NCBI GenBank assembly: GCA_030583865.1
Contig: CP129479.1
Span: 1,476,744 to 1,540,743, forward strand
Length of the DNA stretch: 64,000 nt
Direction: 5' to 3'
Origin: Thermodesulfobacteriota bacterium
GTDB lineage: Bacteria; Desulfobacterota; GWC2-55-46
A program made the translations under genes and the position numbers. Shown in pieces: positions 7,047-56,413 of the stretch (position 1 is its first letter; every line of letters starts with the position of its first letter). The notes below the pieces were generated by a model. The model searched no databases. It saw nothing but the letters and a program-made list of their open reading frames with translations, and was not told the origin of the DNA.

Positions 7047-7090
7047 CTAGTTTTCGCAATCCGTATAGTCGCTTTACGCTTTTAGCTTAT

Positions 7091-7232
7091 GGCAACCTCT
7101 AAAAATCAGAAATTTTTCCTGCAATCAAGGAAGGGCGGGAATAAAAAGCGGAGCATATATGTGAATATGTGAGCATTTTTATTCACGCCCTGACGCAGAG
7201 TCCGGGTAAAATAGCAATTTTTAGAGGTTGCC
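7091..7232 (+). mobile_element. MITE family B copy 1 (16-bp TIR GGCAACCTCTAAAAAT ... ATTTTTAGAGGTTGCC)
   Basis: Perfect 16-bp terminal inverted repeats; flanked by TTAT/TTAT; between ilvC start and ilvN stop. Confidence 0.85.
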
Positions 7233-7718
7233 TTATCTCTGCTTGGGGCTCCGGGCCATTGCCACCCTTCCGGTCCGGACGATCTCCTTTATGCCGAATG
7301 GGCGGAGTAGCTCGGTAATGGCCCGTATCTTCTCCTCGTCCCCGGTTATCTCTATCGTGTAGGTCCGGGAGCTTACGTCAACGACCTTGGCCCTGAATAT
7401 GTCGACTATCGAGAGTATCTCGGCCCTGGTCTCGGCGTTGAGGTTCACCTTTATGAGGGCGAGCTCCCGCTCGATATGCTCCTCGCCGGTGAAGTCGTAT
7501 ACCTTGATGACGTTCACGAGCTTGTTCAATTGCTTGTTTATCTGCTCGAGGACTTTGTCGTCGCCGCTCGTGACGATGGTCATCCGGGATATCTTCGGGT
7601 CGAAGGTCTCGGCCACCGAGAGGCTCTCGATATTGAAGCCCCGCCCGGAGAAAAGTCCCGATATGCGCGATAGCACGCCGAACTCGTTGGTTACAAGGAC
7701 CGATATCGTATGACGCAC
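7233..7718 (-). CDS. ilvN: acetolactate synthase small (regulatory) subunit
   Basis: 161 aa; ACT domain ISVLVTNEFGVLSRISGLFSGRGFNIESL. Confidence 0.9.
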   Translation of the reverse strand: MRHTISVLVTNEFGVLSRISGLFSGRGFNIESLSVAETFDPKISRMTIVTSGDDKVLEQINKQLNKLVNVIKVYDFTGEEHIERELALIKVNLNAETRAEILSIVDIFRAKVVDVSSRTYTIEITGDEEKIRAITELLRPFGIKEIVRTGRVAMARSPKQR

Positions 7719-11713: not shown

Positions 11714-12436
11714 TTAGCGACCGCTTTTAAGCTCTGCTTCGGATTTCCGGAGGTATATCGGGACGAGCTCCGCCGGAGAGACGGCCTCCGCCGCGTGCTC
11801 GAAAGCCAGGAGCCCTACGTTAGAAGCCCTTATGTGCCAAAGGTGGGGCAAGGCCGCGTACGCGTCCCTGAGCGCCTCGACGAGCATTTCCATGTAAACG
11901 GAAAGGCCGCTCCCCAGGAATACGACTTCCCCCTCAAGCCCCCTCCCCCTTATTTCCCCTATGAGGGCCTCGGGCCGCATCGCCGAATCGGGCATGACCG
12001 CCCTGGGGCGGCCTGACATGGTATCGTAAAGGGCGGTGTATACCTCGCCCTTTCTGGCGTCGAGCACCGGGCAGACCATCCTTGCGGAATAAGGGATGTT
12101 CATGGCGAGCGAGGCGAGGGTCGAAACACCGGCTATCTTTTTCCCCTGCGGCCACGCGAGCCCCTTTAGGGCCGATATGCCGATGCGGAGGCCAGTGAAT
12201 GAGCCCGGGCCGACATCAATGGCGAAGAGGTCTACTTCGTCGAGCCCGCACCCGGCGCTCTCAAGGTGCGCTTCAAGGGACTTAAGGAGCCAGCTGGAAT
12301 GGGTCCCCGCGTCCCCGACGGTCCATTCGGAGATGAGCTTTCTATCTTCGAGGAGGGCTATCGAGCCTGACCGGGACGAGGTATCGATTGAAAGTATCTT
12401 CAGGCAACCTCTAAAAATTAGATAATTTTCCCGCAA
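11714..12436 (-). CDS. tsaB: tRNA threonylcarbamoyladenosine biosynthesis protein TsaB (YeaZ)
   Basis: KILSIDTSSRSGSIALL and VGPGSFTGLRIGIS motifs. The annotated ATG start (12434-12436) lies inside the MITE copy at 12403-12545, so the true start is uncertain. Confidence 0.7.
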   Translation of the reverse strand: MRENYLIFRGCLKILSIDTSSRSGSIALLEDRKLISEWTVGDAGTHSSWLLKSLEAHLESAGCGLDEVDLFAIDVGPGSFTGLRIGISALKGLAWPQGKKIAGVSTLASLAMNIPYSARMVCPVLDARKGEVYTALYDTMSGRPRAVMPDSAMRPEALIGEIRGRGLEGEVVFLGSGLSVYMEMLVEALRDAYAALPHLWHIRASNVGLLAFEHAAEAVSPAELVPIYLRKSEAELKSGR

Positions 12437-12545
12437 TCAAGAAAGGGCGGAAATAAAAAGCGGAGCATATATGTGAATATGTGAGCATTTTTATTCACGT
12501 AACCTACGCAGAGTCCGGGGAAAAGGTCAATTTTCAGAGGTTGCC
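12403..12545 (+). mobile_element. MITE family B copy 2
   Basis: Same termini (1 mismatch); internal segment aaaaagcggagcatatatgtgaatatgtgagcatttttattcacg identical to copy 1; flanked by TTCA/TTCA. Confidence 0.85.
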
Positions 12546-12553
12546 TTCAATGC

Positions 12554-13855: not shown

Positions 13856-13896
13856 TTCCTATCTCAATTCAAGCGTGATTTTGGCGTAAATTTCTG

Positions 13897-13998
13897 GCAG
13901 CCCCTAAAAATCAGAGATCTTCACCCGAATCAAGGAAGGTCGGGGTTATTCCCGGCCTGACGCAGAGTCGGGGAAAAGATCAATTCTTAGAAGTTGCA
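13897..13998. mobile_element. MITE family B copy 3 (shorter, degenerate)
   Basis: ggcagcccctaaaaatcag ... caattcttagaagttgc; shares gcctgacgcagagtcgggg core with copy 1. Confidence 0.55.
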
Positions 13999-14033
13999 TT
14001 TATTATACAATAAATTGCCGGCCAGTGTCGCGC

Positions 14034-29796: not shown

Positions 29797-29900
29797 TTGG
29801 GGGAAACTTTCTATAGAAAGTTTCCCCCCACCCCCCCTTCAAAGATTAGTTGTTCCTGAGATGACCCCCATGAATGGGGGTCATCTCAGGAACAACTAAA
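29797..29900. repeat. palindromic repeat family C copy 2
   Basis: Perfect palindrome ggaaactttctatagaaagtttcc (29802-29825) flanked by C/G runs; perfect 24-bp-stem hairpin tagttgttcctgagatgaccccca / tgggggtcatctcaggaacaacta (29848-29898). Sits in the 5' region of the archaeal-type MAT gene. Confidence 0.7.
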
Positions 29901-33674: not shown

Positions 33675-33879
33675 TGAACCACCCCGTTGAGACTTTTTCT
33701 TAGGAACATAGAAACACACGATTCATAACACAAAACGGCCTGCTTTTCAATTTACAATCTGAAGGGGCGAGCCGTATCCAGGTCCGGGAGCGGGGCGCTC
33801 AGGTTCCTTATGTTATACTAAAAATAGGATTCGACGGCTCCCATATCTGAGCACTGCGGCAAAAAGCCGGAAAAGGAGC

Positions 33880-35337
33880 GTGTTTATGGACCATGCCGAC
33901 CGACACGGAACAGAGGGAGAGCTGGAGAGGCTCAGAAGGCGGGTAAGGGAGTTGGAAAAAAAAGAGGCCGAGCACAGGCGGAGCCTCGAAGAAAACCCCG
34001 CCACCATAGAGGCCCTTATGGGGTATATACCGGAGGGCATCATAATAGCCTCCGCGCCTGACGAGACCGTGAGGATGGCAAGCAGGGAGGCGCTACGCAT
34101 GTCGGGGAACGGCGGGGAAAGCATCGAGGGGCTAAAGCTCAAGGACCTTGCCGGCAAGTGCCCGGTCTACCATCCGGACGGCAGGAAGCTCAAGGAGGAG
34201 GAAAACCCGCTTTTCATCGCTCTCCGGGAAGGCCGGGTCATAAGCGACATGGAGTTCACGCTCCGGAGGCCCGACGGGAGCGAGATATTCGTCCTCGCCA
34301 ACGCCGGCCCGGTCTTCGATAAATCCGGTAAGCTCCTGGGCGCGATAGTCTCATGGAGGGACATAACCGCTAGGAGGAGGGCCGAGCAGGCCGTCTTAAG
34401 GGAACGGGGGCTCCTTAAAAGGGTGCTTGCCATATTGCCCGTGGGCGTGTGGATACTGGACGGTAGCGGCAACATCGTGGAGGGGAACGAGGAGGGACAG
34501 AGGATCTGGGGCGGCATAAAGCAGGTCGGCATCGAGGGCTACGGCGAGTACAAGGCATGGTGGGCGGAAAACGGCAAGCCCATCCCGTCGCACGAATGGG
34601 CGGGCGCAAGGGCCATTGAAAGGGGCGAGACCTCCGTAAGCGAAGAGGTGGAGATCGAGGGCTTCGACGGGGCGCGCCGGTTCATAATCAATTCGGCTGT
34701 GCCGCTCACCGATGAAAAGGGCGGGATAACCGGCGCGGTCACGGTAAACCAGGATATAACGGCGAGGAAGCTCGGCGAAAGGATGCTCGCCGAGGCCCAG
34801 CGTACGGCAAGGCTCGGGAACTGGATATGGGAGCCTGAAAGGGACCAGATATGCGGCTCGAGCGAGGCGTACAGGATATTCGGCCTCCGGGAAGGTCAGC
34901 CCATGAACATGGAGGAGTTCATAAAGATGGTGCATCCGAACGACAGGGAGGCACTCAACAACGCCATAAGTGACGCGCTCGCCGGAGGCGGCGGGTACGA
35001 GTTCGACTTCAGGGTGGAGGTCAGGGGCGAGACTAAATACGTCCAGGCCATCGGCAGGACCGAGTTTCGTAACGGAAAACCGGTGGCCGTAAGGGGCACG
35101 GTCCAGGACATTACGGAACGGAAGAGGACGGAAAACGAGCTGAGGGAGGCGCTCGCCCGCATAAAGACCCTTAGCGGCCTCATACCCATCTGCGCGAACT
35201 GCAAGAGGATCAGGGACGACAGGGGCTACTGGATGAGAATAGAAAAATATATAGAAGACCGCTCCACCGCCGAATTCACGCACAGCCTCTGCCCGGACTG
35301 CGAAAAACGGCTTTACGAAGATGACAAGGCTGCCTGA
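33880..35337 (+). CDS. signalling protein with three PAS/PAC domains and a C-terminal Cys4 zinc-ribbon-like tail (no kinase or GGDEF output)
   Basis: 485 aa; three PAS S-box repeats each ending with DIT(A/E)RK; tail IPICANCKRIRDDRGYWMRIEKYIEDRSTAEFTHSLCPDCEKRLY. One of only two plus-strand genes. Confidence 0.7.
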   Translation: MFMDHADRHGTEGELERLRRRVRELEKKEAEHRRSLEENPATIEALMGYIPEGIIIASAPDETVRMASREALRMSGNGGESIEGLKLKDLAGKCPVYHPDGRKLKEEENPLFIALREGRVISDMEFTLRRPDGSEIFVLANAGPVFDKSGKLLGAIVSWRDITARRRAEQAVLRERGLLKRVLAILPVGVWILDGSGNIVEGNEEGQRIWGGIKQVGIEGYGEYKAWWAENGKPIPSHEWAGARAIERGETSVSEEVEIEGFDGARRFIINSAVPLTDEKGGITGAVTVNQDITARKLGERMLAEAQRTARLGNWIWEPERDQICGSSEAYRIFGLREGQPMNMEEFIKMVHPNDREALNNAISDALAGGGGYEFDFRVEVRGETKYVQAIGRTEFRNGKPVAVRGTVQDITERKRTENELREALARIKTLSGLIPICANCKRIRDDRGYWMRIEKYIEDRSTAEFTHSLCPDCEKRLYEDDKAA

Positions 35338-35340
35338 TCG

Positions 35341-35500
35341 GCCTATCAGGACGTTGAAAAAGTCTTTCCTGGACTTTTTCAACCACGGCCTGGCCGGAAT
35401 GAATCCGTCCAAGCCTCATAAATTGCTCGACATTTTCAGCCATTGCAATTTGGCAATCCATCCGTGGATTGCTTAGCAGGGTGTTTTTCAACACCCTGCT
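35341..35500 (+). repeat. repeat family A, full copy (hairpin 1 at 35353-35383, hairpin 2 at 35475-35500)
   Basis: ~90% identical to revcomp of 55078-55245. Terminal hairpins gttgaaaaagtc..ggactttttcaac and agcagggtgtttttcaacaccctgct. Lies between convergent stop codons. Confidence 0.85.
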
Positions 35501-36908
35501 ACCCCCTTTTCCACCCGGAAGGGGCGCTCCCCGGCCCCTTTATGCCCAGCTCGCGCATCTTGAGGAGGAGCGTATTCCTGTGGATCTTGAGCGCCCTCGC
35601 CGTTTCAGCCCTGTTCCAGTTGGCCTTGTCCAGCGCGCCTTTTATGTAGCGCCTCTCGAAGGCCTTGACCGCTTCCTTGAAATCCAGCGTCATCTCCTTT
35701 CCCGGAGCCGCCTCGTCCGCTAGCGCCGGCATGCCCATCGGCAGGTCGTCGGCCCTTATGAGACCCCCCTCGGGCGCGAGCACCACGAGCCTTTCCAGGA
35801 GGTTTTCAAGCTCCCTGATGTTCCCGGGCCACCCGTAATCCATGAACGCCCTTATGACCTCCGGATGGACCCCCTCCACCCTCTTGCCGCACTTCTTGGA
35901 GAGCTTTTCGAGGAAATGCTCGACGAGCAAAGGCACGTCCTCCTTCCTCTCCCTCAAGGGCGGGAGCTCTATGGGCACAACCTTGAGCCTGTAGAAGAGG
36001 TCTTCCCTGAAGCGGCCCGCCGAGACCTCGTCCTCAAGGCGCGCATTCGACGCCGCTATCACCCTTATGTCGATCGTGATGGAAGAATTCGAGCCGACCC
36101 TTTCGAAGGACCTCTCCTGCAGCACCCTTAGGAGCTTTATCTGGAGGTGCATGGGTAGCGTCGATACCTCGTCAAGGAAGAGCGTGCCAGTGTCGGAGTG
36201 CTCGAACTTCCCGATCTTCCTCTGGTGCGCCCCGGTGAAAGCCCCCCTCTCGTGCCCGAAGAGCTCGCTTTCCATGAGCTCTGATGGCACCGCCCCGCAG
36301 TTCACGGCCACGAAGGGCTTCTCCCTCCTGTCGCTCATGAAATGAATGGCCCTTGCGACGAGCTCCTTGCCGGTGCCGCTCTCGCCCGTTATGAGCACCC
36401 CTGACGAGGTCCTGCTCACCGCCTGCATGAGCCCGAAAACCTTCCGCATCGCGGGCGACCTGCTTATCATCTCGCCGTTCAGGTACCTGAGGCCGTTCCG
36501 CTCGTTAAGCTCTTCCTTGAGGAACTCGATTTCGCTCTTGAGCTTAAGCCCTTCGGACAGCCTCGATAGTGTGGCAAGGAGCTCATCCCCGTCAAAGGGC
36601 TTGGCTATGTAGTCGTAGGCGCCTTTCCTGAGGGAGGATACCGCCTGCTCGGCGCTGTCGAGGGCGGAGAGCATTACGACCTCGATCGAGCCGTCGAGCT
36701 CCTTCAACCGCCCGAGCGTTTCAAGCCCGTCCATGCCCGGCAGCTTAAGATCCAGGAGCACTATTTCCACCGGCCTCGAACGTGCCAGAGAGAGGGCCTC
36801 ATGGCCGGTCCGGGCCTTCAGGACCTCATAGCTCTCCCTGAGGAGTATCTCGAGCGCGCCCGTTACGAAATCGTCGTCGTCCACTACGAGGACAAGTGGT
36901 TTTCTCAT
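35499..36908 (-). CDS. sigma-54-dependent response regulator (NtrC family: REC-AAA+-HTH)
   Basis: VLVVDDD receiver; GESGTGKE Walker A; GAFTGA sigma54-contact motif; C-terminal HTH. Stop codon lies in terminal hairpin of repeat A copy. Confidence 0.85.
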   Translation of the reverse strand: MRKPLVLVVDDDDFVTGALEILLRESYEVLKARTGHEALSLARSRPVEIVLLDLKLPGMDGLETLGRLKELDGSIEVVMLSALDSAEQAVSSLRKGAYDYIAKPFDGDELLATLSRLSEGLKLKSEIEFLKEELNERNGLRYLNGEMISRSPAMRKVFGLMQAVSRTSSGVLITGESGTGKELVARAIHFMSDRREKPFVAVNCGAVPSELMESELFGHERGAFTGAHQRKIGKFEHSDTGTLFLDEVSTLPMHLQIKLLRVLQERSFERVGSNSSITIDIRVIAASNARLEDEVSAGRFREDLFYRLKVVPIELPPLRERKEDVPLLVEHFLEKLSKKCGKRVEGVHPEVIRAFMDYGWPGNIRELENLLERLVVLAPEGGLIRADDLPMGMPALADEAAPGKEMTLDFKEAVKAFERRYIKGALDKANWNRAETARALKIHRNTLLLKMRELGIKGPGSAPSGWKRG

Positions 36909-37085
36909 GCAAGCTACCGCCGCCTGTTTTCTGAGGAGTCGCGCCATTTGCCCTGACCATTCACAAAAAATGTATTAATGAACCAATAGTAACATCTTGT
37001 GACTGAATGTCAAGGCAAAATACATTTTTAATTTAAACTGACAGGCCCAGGGCGAGATGAGTGTTTCCGGTTGTTGGAGGGCTTT

Positions 37086-38462
37086 TTATGCCAGATCTGC
37101 TGAAGCGTCTTCGTTCTCTATCCCATAACTCCTGATTTTTCTATAAAGATGACTCCTTTCTATGCCTATGGCCTCGGCGGTCCGGGCGATGTTCCCCCCG
37201 AACTCCTTGAGTTTCCTTGAGATGAATTCCTTTTCAAAGTCCTTCCTGGCCTCCTTGAGGAGATCGCTCCTGGAGATGAAGCCAGGCTGGACGGACTGGG
37301 AACCTTTGATATACGCAGGGAGGTCGCCGGACGTTATCGTATGGGAATGGGTCATTATGACGAGCCTCTCCATGAGGTTCTTAAGCTCCCGGACGTTCCC
37401 CGGCCAGTCGTACGAATAAAGCATCTCCCTGGCCTCGGGGCTTACGGAGAGGACTTCCCTTGCCGTCTCCCGCGCGAACTCCTTGAGGAAATGCTCCATC
37501 AAAAGGGGTATGTCTTCCCTCCTCTCCCTCAAGGGCGGGACATGGAACGGTATCACGTTGAGCCTGTAATAGAGGTCTTCCCTGAACCTCCCTCTTGCGA
37601 CCTCCTCGCTCAGGTTCTTGTTGGTGGCGGCGATCACCCTGGTATCGACCGTGATGAGCTCGGTCCCCCCCACCCTCTCAAAGCTCTTCTCCTGGAGGAC
37701 GCGGAGTATCTTGGCCTGTGTCCTGAGGCTCATGTCCCCTATCTCGTCCAGGAATATGGTGCCCTTGTCGGCCAGGTCGAACTTGCCCTTTTTCTGGGCC
37801 AGTGCGTTCGTGAACGCGCCCTTCTCATGCCCGAAGAGCTCGCTCTCGATAAGCTCTTCGGGAATTGCCGCGCAGTTGACCTCGATGAAAGGCCTTCCCG
37901 ACCTGGTCGAGAGGAGGTGTATGTTCCTTGCGACAAGCTCCTTGCCGGTGCCGTTGTCACCGGTTATGAGTACCCATGAATTGGACGGGGCCGCCTTCCT
38001 TATATCGGCCTTGAGCGACTGTATGGCCTGGGAGCCGCCTATTATCTCGAACCTGGCGCCGACCTTCTGCCTGAGGTTGCTGTTCTCCTCGGTAAGCCTC
38101 TTCTGCTCTATGGCGTGCTCGACCGTAAGGGTGACCTTTTCGAGCGAGAGCGGCTTTTCGATGAAGTCGTAGGCCCCGAGCTTGGTCGTCCTTACGGCCG
38201 TGTCTATGTTGGCGTGCCCGGATATCATTATGACCGGCAGGCCCGGGTGCCTTGATTTAATCTCCTTCAGGGCCTCGACCCCGTCCATGCCCGGGAGCCA
38301 GATGTCCAGGAGCACGGCGTCGGGCTGCCTGACCTCGAGTTTCTTAAGCCCCTCCTCGGCGCTACCGGCGGTAACGACCTCGTGCCCCTCGTCCTTGAGG
38401 ACGCCTAGGAGCGCTTCCCTTATCTCTTTTTCGTCGTCGATTACCAGGACTGTCGTCTTCAT
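37086..38462 (-). CDS. ntrX: sigma-54-type response regulator, NtrX-like
   Basis: 458 aa; REC + AAA+ (GDNGTGKE, GAFTNA variant) + HTH; 4-nt overlap with upstream kinase. Confidence 0.78.
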   Translation of the reverse strand: MKTTVLVIDDEKEIREALLGVLKDEGHEVVTAGSAEEGLKKLEVRQPDAVLLDIWLPGMDGVEALKEIKSRHPGLPVIMISGHANIDTAVRTTKLGAYDFIEKPLSLEKVTLTVEHAIEQKRLTEENSNLRQKVGARFEIIGGSQAIQSLKADIRKAAPSNSWVLITGDNGTGKELVARNIHLLSTRSGRPFIEVNCAAIPEELIESELFGHEKGAFTNALAQKKGKFDLADKGTIFLDEIGDMSLRTQAKILRVLQEKSFERVGGTELITVDTRVIAATNKNLSEEVARGRFREDLYYRLNVIPFHVPPLRERREDIPLLMEHFLKEFARETAREVLSVSPEAREMLYSYDWPGNVRELKNLMERLVIMTHSHTITSGDLPAYIKGSQSVQPGFISRSDLLKEARKDFEKEFISRKLKEFGGNIARTAEAIGIERSHLYRKIRSYGIENEDASADLA

Positions 38463-40693
38463 ATGGTCACGGTCTTTACGGGAAGCTCGATTACGAACCG
38501 GGTGCCCCTGGGCTGGTTGTCCCTTACCCTTATGTACCCGTTGTGGTCGGCTATTATGTTGCTCGTGATGGCAAGCCCCAGCCCCGTGCCGGTCTTCTTG
38601 GTGGAGAAGTACGGCTCGAAGAGCTTCTGCTTGGCCTCCGTGGGGATGCCCGGGCCGGTGTCTATGACCTCGAGCCTGGCGAGCTGCAGCTCCGGCATAT
38701 AGGCCGTCTCGATGCGGACAGCTCCGCCCTCGTCGCCGACCGCGGCTATGGCGTTGTCCATCAGGTTAATAAGTACCCTTTTTATCTGGTCCCTGTCAAT
38801 ATCAAGGACCGGCAGGCGGTCGTCGAGCGAAGACTCGAAGCTTATCGCCCTCTGCCCTGGCTTGTAAAGCGTCATGACCTCGCGTACGACCTCGTTCAGG
38901 TCGTTAGGGCTGGGGTTGGCGGCGGGCATCCGCGCGAAGCTCGAGAACTCGTTTACGAGGGCCTTCAATTCATCTACCTGCTTTATTATGGTCATGGTGC
39001 ACTCGTCGAAAACGGTATCGTCCTCCGGGAACCTGTCCAGGTACTTCTTGCGGAGCCTCTGCGCCGAAAGCTTTATGGGGGTGAGCGGGTTCTTGATCTC
39101 GTGGGCGATCCTCCTCGCCACCTCTTTCCAGGCCGACATCCTCTGGGTCTTTACGAGATGGGTAAGGTCGTCGAGGACCGCGACCATGCCGAGGTAGTTG
39201 CCGGAGTCGTCCTTCAGGGCGTTGAGGTTGGCAAGCACGGTCATTACCTTGCCGTCCACCTCGACCCTCATCTGCTTCTCCATCGATTCGAGCCCCATCT
39301 CGCTCATGGCGCGTATCATCTCCCGGAGCACCTCCCTGTCCTCCTCCCGGAGCACTTCCCTGTAGTTCCTCCCTATGATGTTCTCCTCGCCGGCCCCGAG
39401 CATCTGGGCGGCCACCCGGTTTATGGAGACTATCTTTCCGGACTTGTCGATGGAGATTACACCTGCCGGGACGTTCCCGAGGACTATTTCTATGTACCTC
39501 CTCCTCTGGTCGAGCTCCATGTTGGTGCGCCTGAGGTCCAGGTTCGCGGCCTCTATCTTGTATTTGCCTGTCCTCAGGTCCTCGGTCATCCTGTTGAAGG
39601 ACTTGACCAGCAGGCCTATCTCGTCGTCGGACTCGACGTTTATCCTGTAGTCGAGGTTGCCGCTCGCCACGGCATGGGTCCCTTCAGCAAGCTCGTGTAT
39701 GGGGACGGTAAGCTCCTTCGCTAGATACCGCCCTATCCAGATGGAAAAGAAGACAATGAAGAGGGTTATTATGAGAAGAATGGTGAAATAGCTCGCCTTC
39801 ACGGGGTACTTGAGGAGCTTAAGCTGCTTGTAGCCCTCAAAGGCCGCGGATATCTCCTTCATCTTGTCCATGAGGCTTCGCGGGACATAGTAGCTCACGG
39901 CCACTACCCCGGAAGGATGGCCGCCGACCGAGGGCGGAAGCGGCGCGACAGCCCTTACCACGTCGCCCACCTTGAGGGTCTGGATATAGCTGGACGCCTC
40001 TCCCGAGAGCGCCTTCCGGACGGCATCCTCGTCGGTGTCGGGGACCATGTTCCTTGTTATCTTGTCGGCAACGGTGTAAAGCTCCCTCTTCCCGTCCGAA
40101 GTGAAGACCTCGACCGTGGAGAGGTCCCACTCGACCATCTTCCGCCTTATGAAGTCCTCCCTGGCATCGGACTCGGCGCTCCCGGCCCCGATGGAGTCGG
40201 CAAGGGCCCTCGACGCCGCCTCGACCCTGTCGTGCATGTCCTTATAGTAGTTCTGGGCGAGCTCCATCGACTCCTGGAGAGAGTCCTCGACCTTTATGCC
40301 GAACCACCCGTCAATCGACCTGTTGATGAAGCCTATGACTATCACGAAAAGGAGGACCGTCGGCACTATTGAGAGGGCCACGAACGACGTGACGAGCTTG
40401 GTCCTGAGCTTCGAGCCCATGACCTGCCGCTTCCGTTCCATGAAAAGTTTTACGGTGTTGCGGAGTATCAGGAATACGAGGAGTATAAGGAGTATGATGT
40501 TGATGTTTATGAGGCCGAAGATGAGTATGTTGGTGGCGATCGGCACGTCCCCGCTCAAGGCCGAGAGGTGCGACTCCACAAGGGTGAGGATTATTATCGC
40601 CGGGACGACGAGGAAGATAAGGAAAAGCTCTCTACGGCGCCTTTTGCTTTCGGCGTCGGACTTCTGAGAGTCTATATTACGGGTTTCGCTCAT
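38459..40693 (-). CDS. ntrY: sensor histidine kinase, NtrY-like (TM-HAMP-PAS-HisKA-HATPase)
   Basis: 744 aa; N-terminal multi-TM; H-box AHEIKNPLTPI; G1/G2 boxes. Confidence 0.78.
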   Translation of the reverse strand: MSETRNIDSQKSDAESKRRRRELFLIFLVVPAIIILTLVESHLSALSGDVPIATNILIFGLININIILLILLVFLILRNTVKLFMERKRQVMGSKLRTKLVTSFVALSIVPTVLLFVIVIGFINRSIDGWFGIKVEDSLQESMELAQNYYKDMHDRVEAASRALADSIGAGSAESDAREDFIRRKMVEWDLSTVEVFTSDGKRELYTVADKITRNMVPDTDEDAVRKALSGEASSYIQTLKVGDVVRAVAPLPPSVGGHPSGVVAVSYYVPRSLMDKMKEISAAFEGYKQLKLLKYPVKASYFTILLIITLFIVFFSIWIGRYLAKELTVPIHELAEGTHAVASGNLDYRINVESDDEIGLLVKSFNRMTEDLRTGKYKIEAANLDLRRTNMELDQRRRYIEIVLGNVPAGVISIDKSGKIVSINRVAAQMLGAGEENIIGRNYREVLREEDREVLREMIRAMSEMGLESMEKQMRVEVDGKVMTVLANLNALKDDSGNYLGMVAVLDDLTHLVKTQRMSAWKEVARRIAHEIKNPLTPIKLSAQRLRKKYLDRFPEDDTVFDECTMTIIKQVDELKALVNEFSSFARMPAANPSPNDLNEVVREVMTLYKPGQRAISFESSLDDRLPVLDIDRDQIKRVLINLMDNAIAAVGDEGGAVRIETAYMPELQLARLEVIDTGPGIPTEAKQKLFEPYFSTKKTGTGLGLAITSNIIADHNGYIRVRDNQPRGTRFVIELPVKTVTI

Positions 40694-41439: not shown

Positions 41440-41580
41440 GGCAATCTCTAAAAATCAACCTTTTACCCGGATTCCGTTCAGACGTGGATGAAAATGCACA
41501 CATATTTATCATGCATGTATGCATCGATTTTTATTCCCGGCCTTTATTGCGGGAAGAATCTCAAATTATCAGAGGTTGCT
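41440..41580. mobile_element. MITE family B copy 4 (diverged)
   Basis: ggcaatctctaaaaatcaa ... aattatcagaggttgct termini; different internal sequence. Confidence 0.55.
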
Positions 41581-41654
41581 TAAACATACCTGATTTTGAA
41601 CGGGGTTTATGGCAGAGACTTTTGCGGGATTTTTGGCCTGGTCGGCTAAGGTAC

Positions 41655-41960
41655 TTACTTCTTGGAGATTCGGGACATTCCAGCCTTGATTATTTCCCTC
41701 CTGACCCTTTTCTTGAACTCCGCCTCGTCGACTTTGTACTTGAATACCTTTTTGCCGTTTATGAAAACGGTCGGTATTTCGCCCTTGTAACGCCGGAGGA
41801 GGTCTTCGCTAGAGTCTATGCCGACCTCCTTGAACTCAAAAGGCAGCTCACTGCTTGCCCTGCCTATGATGCTCCGGGCGTCCTTGCAAAGGGCGCAGCC
41901 GTCAATGGCGCAGAGCGCGCAATCCTCGAGTGCATAAAGCTCAACTGTAGGCTTGGTCAT
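41655..41960 (-). CDS. glutaredoxin-like thioredoxin-fold protein with duplicated CxxC
   Basis: 101 aa; EDCALCAIDGCALC tandem CALC motifs; IPTVFINGK glutaredoxin signature. Confidence 0.6.
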   Translation of the reverse strand: MTKPTVELYALEDCALCAIDGCALCKDARSIIGRASSELPFEFKEVGIDSSEDLLRRYKGEIPTVFINGKKVFKYKVDEAEFKKRVRREIIKAGMSRISKK

Positions 41961-41983
41961 GGCACGGCGCTAAGGGGTCGAAA

Positions 41984-42721
41984 TCAGCTTATGCTGGGTA
42001 TTACGCTGTTTATGTACCCGGCTATGATACCAAGTGAGTTGGTAAATATCAAGAGCCCAGTTAATATGAGGAAGACGCCGGTCACTATCGAAACTGTCCT
42101 CATGTGCCTCTTGAGCCGGTTGAAATGCCTGAGAAAGGTGTTGATGCCCAGGGAAGTGAGGAGGAACGGTATTGCCAGCCCCGCCGAATAGGCTATGAAG
42201 AGGATGATACCCGACCAAGGGCTCTCGGTCGTCGCGGCCACGGCGAATATCGCGGAGAGTATGGGCCCTATGCAGGGCGTCCAGCCCGCGGCAAAGCCTA
42301 TCCCCACGAGGAACGATCCGAGGAGCCCCGCCGGCTTCTCGCGGAAGAAATGAAGGCGCTTGTCCCTCTGCAGTATGCTGAAGTTGATGATCCCTATGAT
42401 ATGTATGCCGAGGAGTATTATTACCAGGCCGCCTATCTTCCGGATTATGTCCTGGTATTCCATGAAGACGTTCCCGAGGAGCTGCGCGGAAGAACCCAGT
42501 ATGACCACGAAAACGGTCGAGAAGCCGAGGATGAACATGAGGGAGTTGAAGAGTATTACCTTCTTGAGCTTCTTCTCTTCCCCGCCCTCTCCCGTAAGCT
42601 CCTCGAAAGAGATGCCAGTCACGAAGGATATGTAGGACGGCACGAGCGGCAGCACGCACGGGGAGATGAAGGAGAGTATCCCCCCCATGAACGCAAGCGG
42701 TATGGAAACCTCGGTGGTCAT
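41984..42721 (-). CDS. ccdA: cytochrome c-type biogenesis protein CcdA (DsbD-family thiol transporter)
   Basis: 245 aa; TM cysteines in SFISPCVLPL and GWTPCIGP. Confidence 0.85.
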   Translation of the reverse strand: MTTEVSIPLAFMGGILSFISPCVLPLVPSYISFVTGISFEELTGEGGEEKKLKKVILFNSLMFILGFSTVFVVILGSSAQLLGNVFMEYQDIIRKIGGLVIILLGIHIIGIINFSILQRDKRLHFFREKPAGLLGSFLVGIGFAAGWTPCIGPILSAIFAVAATTESPWSGIILFIAYSAGLAIPFLLTSLGINTFLRHFNRLKRHMRTVSIVTGVFLILTGLLIFTNSLGIIAGYINSVIPSIS

Positions 42722-55077: not shown

Positions 55078-55245
55078 TTTAGCAGGGTGTTGAAAAAACA
55101 CCCTGCTAAGCAATCCACGGATGGATTGCCAAATTGCGAAGACTATCCAGGTCGAGCAATTTGTAAGGCTTGGACGGATTCATTCCGGCCAAGCCGTGGT
55201 TGAAAAAGTCCAGGAAGGACTTTTTCAACATCCTGTTAGAGGAAA
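55078..55245 (-). repeat. repeat family A, full copy in inverted orientation
   Basis: Reverse complement matches 35341-35500; 50 bp upstream of the cytochrome c start. Confidence 0.85.
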
Positions 55246-55285
55246 TCCTGACGGCCCATTTAAAATCCATAAACGAGAGGTGCAG

Positions 55286-56413
55286 ATGAAGGCAAGACAA
55301 TCTTTTATCCTGCTTGCATTTTTGCTGGCGGGGCCGCTTACGTCCGAGGTTGCGTTCGCGGAGAGCAAGTTCATGAAGAGCTTCAGGACGAGCTACGAGC
55401 AGAACAGGTTCGACGCCCTGGGGTTTCTCGTCAAGACCAACAAGGACATAATACCCGGCGAGATACGCTCCCTCCTGGACGAGGCCAGGGCTGCCGAGGG
55501 GTTTGAAAAGAAGATGGCGATCCTTGACCTCGCGGCCACGATGGCGACCATGTACGGCGAGTGGCACGGCCAGGACGGGTTCATTGGCGAGATAGAAGCC
55601 ATGCAGAAAGAGGAGATGGGAAAAGAGGAGGAGAGAAAGGCCGAGCTGGAGAAATGGAAAAAATACGAGGCCTTTCCGGGCAACTTGCTCATGAGGGAAA
55701 AAGCCGAGGCAGCCGGCATGGCGCCAGTCATCTTCCCCCATTGGGTCCACAGGATCAACTTCGAATGCAAGGCCTGCCACCCCGCGCCCTTTGAGATGAA
55801 AAAGACCGGCTCAATAGGCATGACGGAGATATTCGGCGGCGGCCTTTGCGGGAAGTGCCATAACGGCACGACAGCGTTCAGCGCCGCCGAGGACTGCGAA
55901 AGATGCCACAGCGTGGGCACGCCGGGCGAGGCCCATCTCCTGGACCCGAAAAAAGCCTACGTCTCGAAGCTCAAAGAGACCTCTGAACGGCTCGGGACAG
56001 GGCTGAATCTCGACCTCCTCCCGGGCAAGGCCCTGCCTTACGACAGGTTCGGCAACATAGACTGGGGCCTCCTGGGGAAGGCCAGAAAACCGATAAAATC
56101 GATTGAGGGGGCCCCTGCCGATAAAGCGGACGAGACGAGGGACAACGAAATACTCTTCGAGTCTCCCATGCCCTACGTGAACAACGTCGTCTTCAGCCAC
56201 AAGACCCATTCGGAAAGGGTCGTGTGCTCGTCCTGCCACCAGTCTTTCTTCAAGGACCAGCTCGGCGCCAATACCGCCAGCATGAAGGACATGGCCGAAG
56301 GCGCCTCCTGCGGCGCGTGCCATCAGAAGGTGGCCTTCAAGTTCGCCGACTGCAACCGCTGCCATTCCAGGCCCGTGGCCGAGGACGCCGGTGGAGCGCT
56401 TAAGAGGAAGTAG
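55286..56413 (+). CDS. secreted multihaem (six CxxCH) c-type cytochrome
   Basis: Starts MKARQSFILLAFLLAGPLTSEVAFA (signal) after GAGAGG RBS; haem motifs CKACH, CGKCH, CERCH, CSSCH, CGACH, CNRCH. The upstream ORF extension to 55121 is encoded by repeat A copy C. Confidence 0.8.
   Translation: MKARQSFILLAFLLAGPLTSEVAFAESKFMKSFRTSYEQNRFDALGFLVKTNKDIIPGEIRSLLDEARAAEGFEKKMAILDLAATMATMYGEWHGQDGFIGEIEAMQKEEMGKEEERKAELEKWKKYEAFPGNLLMREKAEAAGMAPVIFPHWVHRINFECKACHPAPFEMKKTGSIGMTEIFGGGLCGKCHNGTTAFSAAEDCERCHSVGTPGEAHLLDPKKAYVSKLKETSERLGTGLNLDLLPGKALPYDRFGNIDWGLLGKARKPIKSIEGAPADKADETRDNEILFESPMPYVNNVVFSHKTHSERVVCSSCHQSFFKDQLGANTASMKDMAEGASCGACHQKVAFKFADCNRCHSRPVAEDAGGALKRK

Follow-up and report, generated by a model that had tools for sequence, protein, structure and literature searches.

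Sensors in which PAS domains drive histidine-kinase (HK) or GGDEF modules have been seen to adopt a parallel coiled-coil arrangement, and whole-heptad length classes are expected of the coiled-coil signalling helix that joins PAS to effector in such dimers (PAS-HK, PAS-GGDEF). The ZAS anti-sigma domain of RsrA and ChrR, with the ligand pattern (C/H)-x~25-H-x3-C-x2-C, is regulatory and acts by protein binding, DksA/TraR (PF01258) carries a C4 metal site after a coiled coil and acts by binding RNA polymerase, and rubredoxin has the ligand spacing C-x2-C-x29-C-P-x-C. HalOD2, an output domain of halobacterial response regulators, consists of a helical segment and a predicted Zn finger placed after REC; its two CXXC motifs are spaced by 20-25 residues, and DNA or RNA binding was predicted for it (Galperin et al. 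2018, PMC5847659). The gene described here lies in a 64,000-nucleotide (nt) stretch of a Thermodesulfobacteriota bacterium (GenBank assembly GCA_030583865.1, contig CP129479.1, positions 1,476,744 to 1,540,743), called the window below, and encodes three PAS domains followed by a short C-terminal tail with four cysteines and a histidine. Judged from its sequence, this tail is an abundant, apparently unnamed domain family and not a local oddity, and tens of thousands of bacterial signalling proteins appear to have it as their sole non-sensory part.

In the open reading frame (ORF) listing of the window, the gene spans 33880..35337 on the forward strand, with 485 amino acids (aa) counted from a GTG. 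The true start is probably the ATG at 33886, because the sequence AGGAG lies 7 nt upstream of it and because NCBI WKZ31697.1 ('MAG: PAS domain S-box protein [Thermodesulfobacteriota bacterium]') has exactly the sequence of the 483-aa product. The GTG-started version was absent from the protein collection searched. Residue numbers nevertheless follow the 485-aa product, and the gene is laid out as follows.

33874..33878, forward strand: Shine-Dalgarno-like AGGAG, read from the sequence
33886..35337, forward strand: PAS-PAS-PAS-tail coding sequence, 483 aa plus stop (the ORF finder listing begins at GTG 33880)
34030..34380, forward strand: PAS domain 1, residues 51-167 (Pfam PAS_4 at 1.4e-25, also PAS and PAS_9; TIGR00229)
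34414..34764, forward strand: PAS domain 2, Trp-rich, residues ~179-295 (Pfam PAS_8 at 179-213, PAS_10 at 255-294)
34858..35103, forward strand: PAS domain 3, PAS_3 type, residues 327-408 (Pfam PAS_3 at 8.6e-17)
35107..35190, forward strand: predicted signalling-helix linker of 28 residues, starting at D410 of the DIT motif and ending just before the first Cys, with the hinge T-L-S-G-L-I-P-I
35191..35301, forward strand: Cys4-His core C438-x2-C441-x26-H468-x2-C471-x2-C474, including K-R-I-R-D-D-R-G-Y-W (from the alignment invariants and the conservation table)
35302..35334, forward strand: C-terminal extension EKRLYEDDKAA, the last predicted helix (AlphaFold2, residues 67-78 of an 80-residue model)

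The frame is a real gene, since its GC content by codon position (0.58/0.44/0.77) matches that of the real genes in the window; an antisense ORF of 338 aa at 34396..35412 has the inverted pattern and is a shadow ORF. A preliminary description, made from the letters of the window, had read three PAS units in the product, and these were recovered by Pfam (PAS_4, PAS_8/PAS_10, and PAS_3, with 90.1, 32.4, and 61.6 bits over cut-offs of 23.1, 21.8, and 25.6, respectively) and by three stretches of TIGR00229 in NCBIfam (103.3 bits). With these curated thresholds exceeded, the protein counts as a PAS-domain sensor. HisKA and HATPase families were not found in it at E <= 10 in Pfam-A, nor was any GGDEF, EAL, HD-GYP, or HTH match found in Pfam-A and NCBIfam. 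NCBIfam kinase equivalogs touched the protein via its PAS regions only, far under their cut-offs. By these scans it is neither a sensor histidine kinase, nor a cyclic di-GMP enzyme, nor a one-component transcription factor, and the earlier picture of a compact sensor with a Cys4 tail as its sole non-PAS module is upheld. PAS2 is unusually Trp-rich (VGVWILD...YGEYKAWWAENGKPI...EWAGARA). When the protein is aligned with the Geobacter-type PAS kinase P0359, PAS2 is also the best-conserved stretch, far above PAS1 and PAS3, and this conservation suggests a specific, conserved ligand.

The same architecture would result if a histidine kinase had been truncated by a frameshift or an assembly error, and homologous PAS arrays do occur on histidine kinases. 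The stop codon is followed by 161 nt up to the convergent gene of a sigma-54 activator, which has its 3' end at 35499; 146 of these nt are a repeat element, and no kinase remnants are present. Full-coverage orthologues were found at 83-94% identity, orthologues at 50-94% identity share the same C-terminal ending, and the tail also closes at least 34 independent orthologues or close relatives, taken from different assemblies. Synteny is conserved as well, and the tail is clearly under purifying selection. The truncation artefact was rejected on the downstream gap, the tail-ending relatives, the synteny, and the selection, and its probability is close to nil. The hidden kinase domain behind a frameshift, which the preliminary description had named as the finding that would overturn it, was looked for and is not there.

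The tail sequence had been quoted correctly in that description, with the spacing given as CxxC-x31-CxxC; counting yields x29 instead (CANC at 438-441, CPDC at 471-474). The Cys4-His core motif is unique in the window across all six frames. Homologues were found with the 66 C-terminal residues alone at E down to 3.5e-28, and their alignment is invariant at L, G, P-I-C, C, R, H, C, and C, the near-invariant His standing three residues before the second CxxC (H-x2-C-x2-C). The family consensus reads T-L-S-G-L-[LI]-P-I-C-A-x-C-K-K-I-R-D-D-x-G-Y-W-x-Q-[IV]-E-x-Y-I-x-x-H-S-x-A-x-F-[ST]-H-G-[IL]-C-P-[DE]-C-x-[KR]-K-L-Y-P. Within the core, K5, R8, D10, G12, W14, E18, and Y20 are conserved in 94, 96, 97, 99, 99, 95, and 93%, respectively. 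All invariant and nearly all near-invariant positions are present in the window protein, the exceptions being positions 24 (R instead of H) and 43 (E instead of P). It also matches the pattern by which the family was tested, a C-terminal L-x-G-L-x-P-I-C-x2-C-K-[KR]-I-R-D-D-x-G-Y-W...E-x-Y...F-[ST]-H-x2-C-P-x-C with a fixed 26 residues from the second Cys to the His. The conserved unit, as read from the alignment, exceeds the four cysteines and comprises a helix, a G-x-x-P hinge, C-x2-C, K-K-I-R-D-D-x-G-Y-W, and H-x2-C-x2-C.

The tail profile was searched against 1.84 billion protein representatives at 50% identity and matched 24,510 of them at E <= 1e-3, 20,169 at E <= 1e-10, and 3,712 at E <= 1e-30. 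The span C-x2-C-x26-H-x2-C-x2-C is exactly 37 residues long in 149 of the 150 best matches, and in the single-copy proteins among these 150 the core ends 1-63 residues from the C-terminus. Nearly all family members stop 7-31 residues past the last Cys. At least 593 tail loci were confirmed when genomes, one for each GTDB species, were scanned for the pattern. The best 80 loci belong to Desulfobacterota/Thermodesulfobacteriota, Myxococcota, Acidobacteriota, Nitrospirota, Bacteroidota, Ignavibacteriae, Calditrichota, Verrucomicrobiota, Chloroflexota, Gemmatimonadota, Spirochaetota, Latescibacterota, Hydrogenedentes, and Gammaproteobacteria, and the tail is thus present in more than ten bacterial phyla. 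A search of plasmids and cultured organisms gave a single match, on a plasmid of Dongshaea marina (NZ_CP028898.1, locus L090, 831-4138), where an IS21 transposase lies between the gene of a GAF domain-containing protein and a tail remnant; this is probably an IS21-disrupted GAF-tail pseudogene.

No model of the tail was found in Pfam-A (a copy with 2025 models) or NCBIfam 20.0. Matches to it at E <= 10 were short sub-threshold fragments only (Zn_ribbon_HMPTM, DUF3039, zf-C2HC5, and NMD3), Zn_ribbon_HMPTM being a short zinc-ribbon fragment with 16.3 bits against a Pfam cut-off of 27. ZAS, DksA/TraR, HNH, rubredoxin, and double-zinc-ribbon models were tried as known-domain identities and all remained without a match. 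No significant relative occurs among PDB sequences. The best match there is 7yjw_A ('Membrane protein'), residues 16-41, with a weak E = 0.02-0.09 over a 25-residue stretch. Its W-I-P-I-C-L-V-C-K-I-R-E-E-K-G-T-Y-K-N-L-E-E resembles the first half of the tail, the second Cys pair is missing, and the resemblance is probably due to chance. A description of the tail was not found in full-text literature, the coverage of which excludes subscription journals, and database names for tail proteins are limited to 'PAS domain S-box protein', 'response regulator', and 'hypothetical protein'. The search of the last residues with hidden Markov models (HMM), which the preliminary description had proposed, accordingly yielded no well-characterised domain, in keeping with its view that the sensor is of an under-described type.

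Architectures were inspected for the best 150 of the 24,510 family members. Pfam domains preceding the tail in 111 representatives were PAS (76), GAF (15), REC (9), and HAMP (5), with single cases of CHASE, CHASE4, dCache, DUF4118, MASE6, and a Tll0287-like domain. Kinase, cyclase, and HTH families were not among the 25 most frequent of the 39 Pfam families found in these representatives, and no kinase, cyclase, phosphodiesterase, or HTH domain occurred in any inspected tail-bearing protein. The ten longest members (657-872 aa) carry only PAS, GAF, CHASE, or Cache ahead of the tail, and proteins with two tails are tandem units ([REC-tail]x2, [MASE6-tail]x2, and [Reg_prop/Y_Y_Y-tail]x2). An SBP_bac_3-PAS-tail architecture is also present. 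Roughly one in ten family members is membrane-anchored. The survey of tail-sharing proteins that had been suggested at the outset therefore pairs the tail with input domains only, in the proteins inspected.

Three observations place the tail, by comparison of sequences, in the output position: REC-tail proteins follow kinases, the tail replaces HK or GGDEF modules on homologous arrays, and the linker in front of it is heptad-spaced. At three loci (L014, L036, and L064) a kinase gene with HisKA or HisKA_2 plus HATPase lies directly upstream of a REC-tail gene of 212-219 aa, with gaps of -3 to 16 nt. Some tail members are thus coupled to histidine kinases via a REC domain. Among the best 120 full-length homologues, 45 carry the tail; as read from the listed Pfam domains, ~45 carry HisKA/HATPase and ~18 GGDEF. 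The best BLASTP alignment, with the 801-aa kinase P0359, shows 37% identity over 444 columns. Clear similarity ends at the Q-D-I-T-E-R that closes PAS3, and the ~40 further aligned residues are nearly without identities. These comparisons show an exchange of the tail with HK or GGDEF modules among homologous PAS arrays.

Linker length was measured in 141 non-redundant sequences, between the D of D-I-T-E-R-K, the PAS exit motif, and the first Cys. The distance is 35 residues in 129 of them, 28 in 4, and 42 in 2, a distribution that indicates quantisation in whole heptads. The window protein falls into one of these 28/35/42-residue helix classes: together with its close orthologues (83-94% identity) it has a distance of 28, and the syntenic sister clade (~50% identity) one of 35, so that the linker of the window protein is one heptad (7 residues) shorter. 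AlphaFold2 predicts the linker as one long helix, with a predicted local distance difference test (pLDDT) of 87-90. The very small size of the module and the absence of an apparent partner gene would suit a metal-stapled cap or dimerisation knot at the end of the coiled coil. The proteins would then act as PAS/GAF/REC-only modulators, for instance as heteromers with kinases, as stand-alone PAS and REC proteins are generally known to do. Such a cap is improbable: conservation across phyla, from 93% for Y20 to 99% for G12 and W14, is far above the need of a staple, the linker length is quantised, and the tail sits exactly where HK and GGDEF modules sit on homologous PAS arrays. Short coiled-coil-plus-tail proteins without a sensor domain also exist, though several of these may be fragments.

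The fold of the tail was predicted with AlphaFold2 from 66 residues with 31 aligned sequences and from 80 residues with 60, at a mean pLDDT of 64 and 71, respectively. Topology is alike in both runs. A hinge is followed by a short knuckle at the first CxxC, an alpha-helix over G-Y-W...E-x-Y-I, a loop with F-T-H, and a final helix starting from C-P-D-C. The alpha-helix between the Cys pairs is predicted to be 15 residues long, and the second CxxC lies at a helix N-terminus. Foldseek searches of both models against the PDB gave nothing at E <= 0.001. The small zinc ribbon suggested in the preliminary description is not supported by these models, which put a helix between the Cys pairs at modest confidence (pLDDT 59-76 in the Cys-rich part) and have no Foldseek analogue; a two-hairpin zinc ribbon is, at that confidence, not what AlphaFold2 predicts. 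Metal binding by the tail is inferred from the four invariant Cys and the His.

The tail could also be a redox- or metal-responsive centre, such as a rubredoxin-like Fe(Cys)4, an Fe-S cluster, or an Hsp33/RsrA-type Zn-thiolate switch. It would then be a further sensor and not an output, and the protein would signal through its PAS domains or through a change in oligomeric state. The four invariant Cys with the near-invariant His and the rubredoxin-identical spacing are in line with this, as is the CPxC at a predicted helix N-terminus, which resembles thiol-redox sites. The best-matching genomes are mostly those of anaerobes (Desulfobacterota, Nitrospirota, Anaerolineae, and Acidobacteriota). 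However, this bias may stem from ranking by similarity to a Desulfobacterota query, and Verrucomicrobiota, Gemmatimonadota, and Bacteroidota carry the tail too. Homology to rubredoxin was tested and dismissed as resemblance only, at an hhalign probability of 1.7% against four rubredoxin sequences and without a match to the Pfam Rubredoxin model (PF00301); zf-HC2 did not match either. A redox centre would moreover leave more than 20,000 protein clusters without an output, including REC-tail regulators encoded right after kinases, and the strict heptad phasing is typical of a driven module and not of an independent sensor. We regard a redox centre as unlikely.

Nucleic-acid binding had been one of two functions offered in the preliminary description. 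The tail would in that case be a small zinc-finger domain and its proteins one-component transcription or RNA regulators. Its zinc-finger-like Cys4 pattern and the conserved K-K-I-R patch agree with this, a dimeric display on a coiled coil would suit palindromic sites, and HalOD2 offers a conceptual precedent (PMC5847659). The core is slightly acidic, however, with a mean net charge of -1.2 (range -6 to +3), and the basic K-K-I-R patch directly precedes the invariant D-D. Some members are integral-membrane sensors (with MASE6, CHASE, dCache, HAMP, or DUF4118), conserved adjacent target genes or divergent operons were not found, and no DNA- or RNA-binding Pfam family matched even at E <= 10. 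The acidic core and the membrane-anchored members make a protein or a small ligand the favoured partner over DNA, and nucleic-acid binding is accordingly disfavoured as a rather remote prospect.

The reading that we prefer, at somewhat less than an even chance, is that the tail is a metal-stabilised effector driven via a dimeric coiled coil and acting by partner binding. The protein would be a cytoplasmic one-component-type sensor whose three PAS domains receive the signal. From the D-I-T-E-R-K exit of PAS3 the signal would pass into a helix of fixed heptad phase, most likely a parallel coiled coil in a dimer. This helix would end at the G-x-x-P hinge, followed by the ~45-residue module held by one metal ion, probably Zn, on the four Cys, with the invariant His beside the site. 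A shift in the register or rotation of the coiled coil would alter how two copies display the conserved surface (K-K/R-I-R-D-D-x-G-Y-W, E, and Y) to a partner. The latter would be encoded elsewhere in the genome and is most likely a protein or small ligand and not DNA. Both dimerisation and partner binding of the tail are inferred here.

Several points weigh against this effector reading. The Cys-rich part is predicted at a pLDDT of only 59-76, so that the fold and the clustering of the Cys are not fixed by AlphaFold2, and given the rubredoxin-like spacing it is possible that the site holds Fe rather than Zn. A missing conserved neighbour is equally expected of a domain without any partner. 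Rarer fusions to classical output domains may occur beyond the best 150 members inspected. A bolder extension would make the tail a docking module in a so far unrecognised route that spans phyla, by which many sensors per genome (PAS, GAF, REC, and MASE6/CHASE/Cache) converge on a single hub or second-messenger-like ligand; this is a long shot.

Partner genes were sought by BLAST clustering of 442 neighbours at 71 loci and by Pfam scans of 125 immediate neighbours. Recurrent neighbours in the 71 loci were signalling proteins only (HATPase_c 7, HisKA 6, and PAS 8), and no dedicated partner gene, adjacent target genes, or divergent operons were conserved across them. The missing dedicated neighbour fits a shared partner encoded elsewhere. 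B12-binding neighbours were considered as partners and discarded, with three occurrences of which only one is homologous to the B12 protein beside the stand-alone tail protein P0017. No neighbour is common to the stand-alone coiled-coil-plus-tail proteins of long contigs, and at least one stand-alone tail protein seems to have been split off a PAS gene by a frameshift. At one locus (L084, 4401-6741 of CAZIUM010000016.1) a 113-aa stand-alone tail protein is translationally coupled to a B12-binding protein (PF02607 plus PF02310), the stop of which it overlaps. Downstream of the tail gene, a polytopic membrane protein of 425 aa without a Pfam match is encoded. This locus could be a split sensor-tail version, possibly responsive to light or cobalamin.

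In the window itself, the PAS-tail gene is divergent from yebC, as had been stated. Downstream it is convergent with an orphan NtrC-type sigma-54 activator on the reverse strand (35499-36947; REC, AAA+, and HTH_8), beyond which an NtrX-like regulator, an NtrY-like kinase, and a DUF4390 gene follow on the same strand (37086-40693), in an order kept in relatives at ~50% identity of the PAS-tail protein. Synteny is kept down to 50% identity, with the gene divergent from yebC-ruvCAB and convergent with the NtrC-type regulator next to the NtrY/NtrX-like pair. A functional link to the adjacent sigma-54 regulators was considered and is, though possible, unsupported: the whole region from yebC-ruvCAB to NtrYX is equally collinear, and conserved synteny is therefore uninformative on the partner. 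The gene had also been counted as one of only two on the forward strand. A second clear one was found at 55121..56413, and a forward ORF at 41484-42191 is of doubtful coding status. The codon-position GC of the latter (0.56/0.39/0.52) is unlike that of the window's real genes and unlike that of shadow ORFs.

The repeat noted 3' of the gene, repeat A, was confirmed as a 146-nt element between the two convergent genes. Its copies lie at the following positions.

35343-35488: intergenic repeat A, 146 nt
55094-55239: inverted copy of repeat A
1-48: partial copy of repeat A

Repeat A forms three strong hairpins (RNA minimum free energy -61 kcal/mol, z = -5.8) and has no family match in Rfam. At an orthologous locus (L091) merely 16 nt separate the same two convergent genes, and repeat A is therefore an insertion in this genome, behaving like a miniature inverted-repeat transposable element or a repetitive extragenic palindrome. 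Both clear forward-strand genes of the window adjoin a copy. For the cytochrome ORF 55121..56413, whose annotated 5' end falls within the inverted copy, the start may for this reason be miscalled. A second intergenic repeat family (families D3-D5) has three copies of ~105-150 nt with 62-91% identity at 7083-7234, 12395-12547, and 13892-14000. The palindromic hairpin GGGGGAAACTTTCTATAGAAAGTTTCCCCC occurs twice, at 2838-2868 and 29798-29828, the copies matching to 94%, and a separate perfect palindrome with 26-nt arms lies at 29846-29899, just downstream of the second GGGGGAAACTTTCTATAGAAAGTTTCCCCC copy.

What is new here is an apparently undescribed, putative effector domain on one- and two-component sensors, a description of which may exist beyond the literature and databases covered. 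Censuses of signal transduction sort proteins by output domain, and those in which PAS, GAF, or REC is joined to 'nothing' are usually disregarded. The 'nothing' in the present case is a sharply conserved Cys4-His module of 45-50 residues that appears to be wired like a genuine output. If the partner or ligand were found, a downstream pathway would be gained for thousands of dead-end sensors, including many in sulfate reducers, Nitrospirota, Acidobacteriota, and Bacteroidota, and the small size and modular coupling of the tail would make it a candidate part for engineered sensors. The docking route, if true, would add an output 'currency' beside phosphotransfer and cyclic-nucleotide synthesis. 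The minimal gain is a curated domain model in place of the bare 'PAS domain S-box protein' annotation.

Among described systems, rubredoxin has the same ligand spacing as the tail, C-x2-C-x29-C-P-x-C. It has a beta-sheet between the knuckles, whereas a 15-residue alpha-helix is predicted there by AlphaFold2 for the tail. The ZAS domain is close in ligand pattern (C-x26-H-x2-C-x2-C in the tail) and, like the predicted structure of the tail, is largely helical with a CxxC at a helix start. It differs in the x3 between His and Cys (x2 in the tail) and in its N-terminal position (C-terminal in the tail), and the first CxxC knuckle is extra in the tail. Membership in ZAS (zf-HC2, PF13490) was rejected on the lack of an HMM match at E <= 10, the H-x2-C-x2-C spacing, and the C-terminal position. 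DksA/TraR likewise has a C4 site after a coiled coil, but PF01258 does not match the tail, the Cys spacing is another, and its coiled coil is an intramolecular hairpin in contrast to the putative inter-subunit signalling helix.

HalOD2, compared by description only, resembles the tail in the succession of REC, a helical segment, and two conserved CXXC motifs. Its CXXC pairs are 20-25 residues apart and those of the tail a fixed 29, and it is confined to a few halobacteria, whereas the tail occurs in many bacterial phyla. The PAS-HisKA and PAS-GGDEF sensors differ from the tail proteins in the module itself, as the tail, with ~45 residues and no match to HisKA, HATPase, or GGDEF models, is too small for a kinase or cyclase. 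They share with them the D-I-T-E-R-K exit motif, the heptad-phased helix, and the range of upstream inputs, and the place that HisKA/HATPase or GGDEF takes on some homologous arrays is held by the tail on others.

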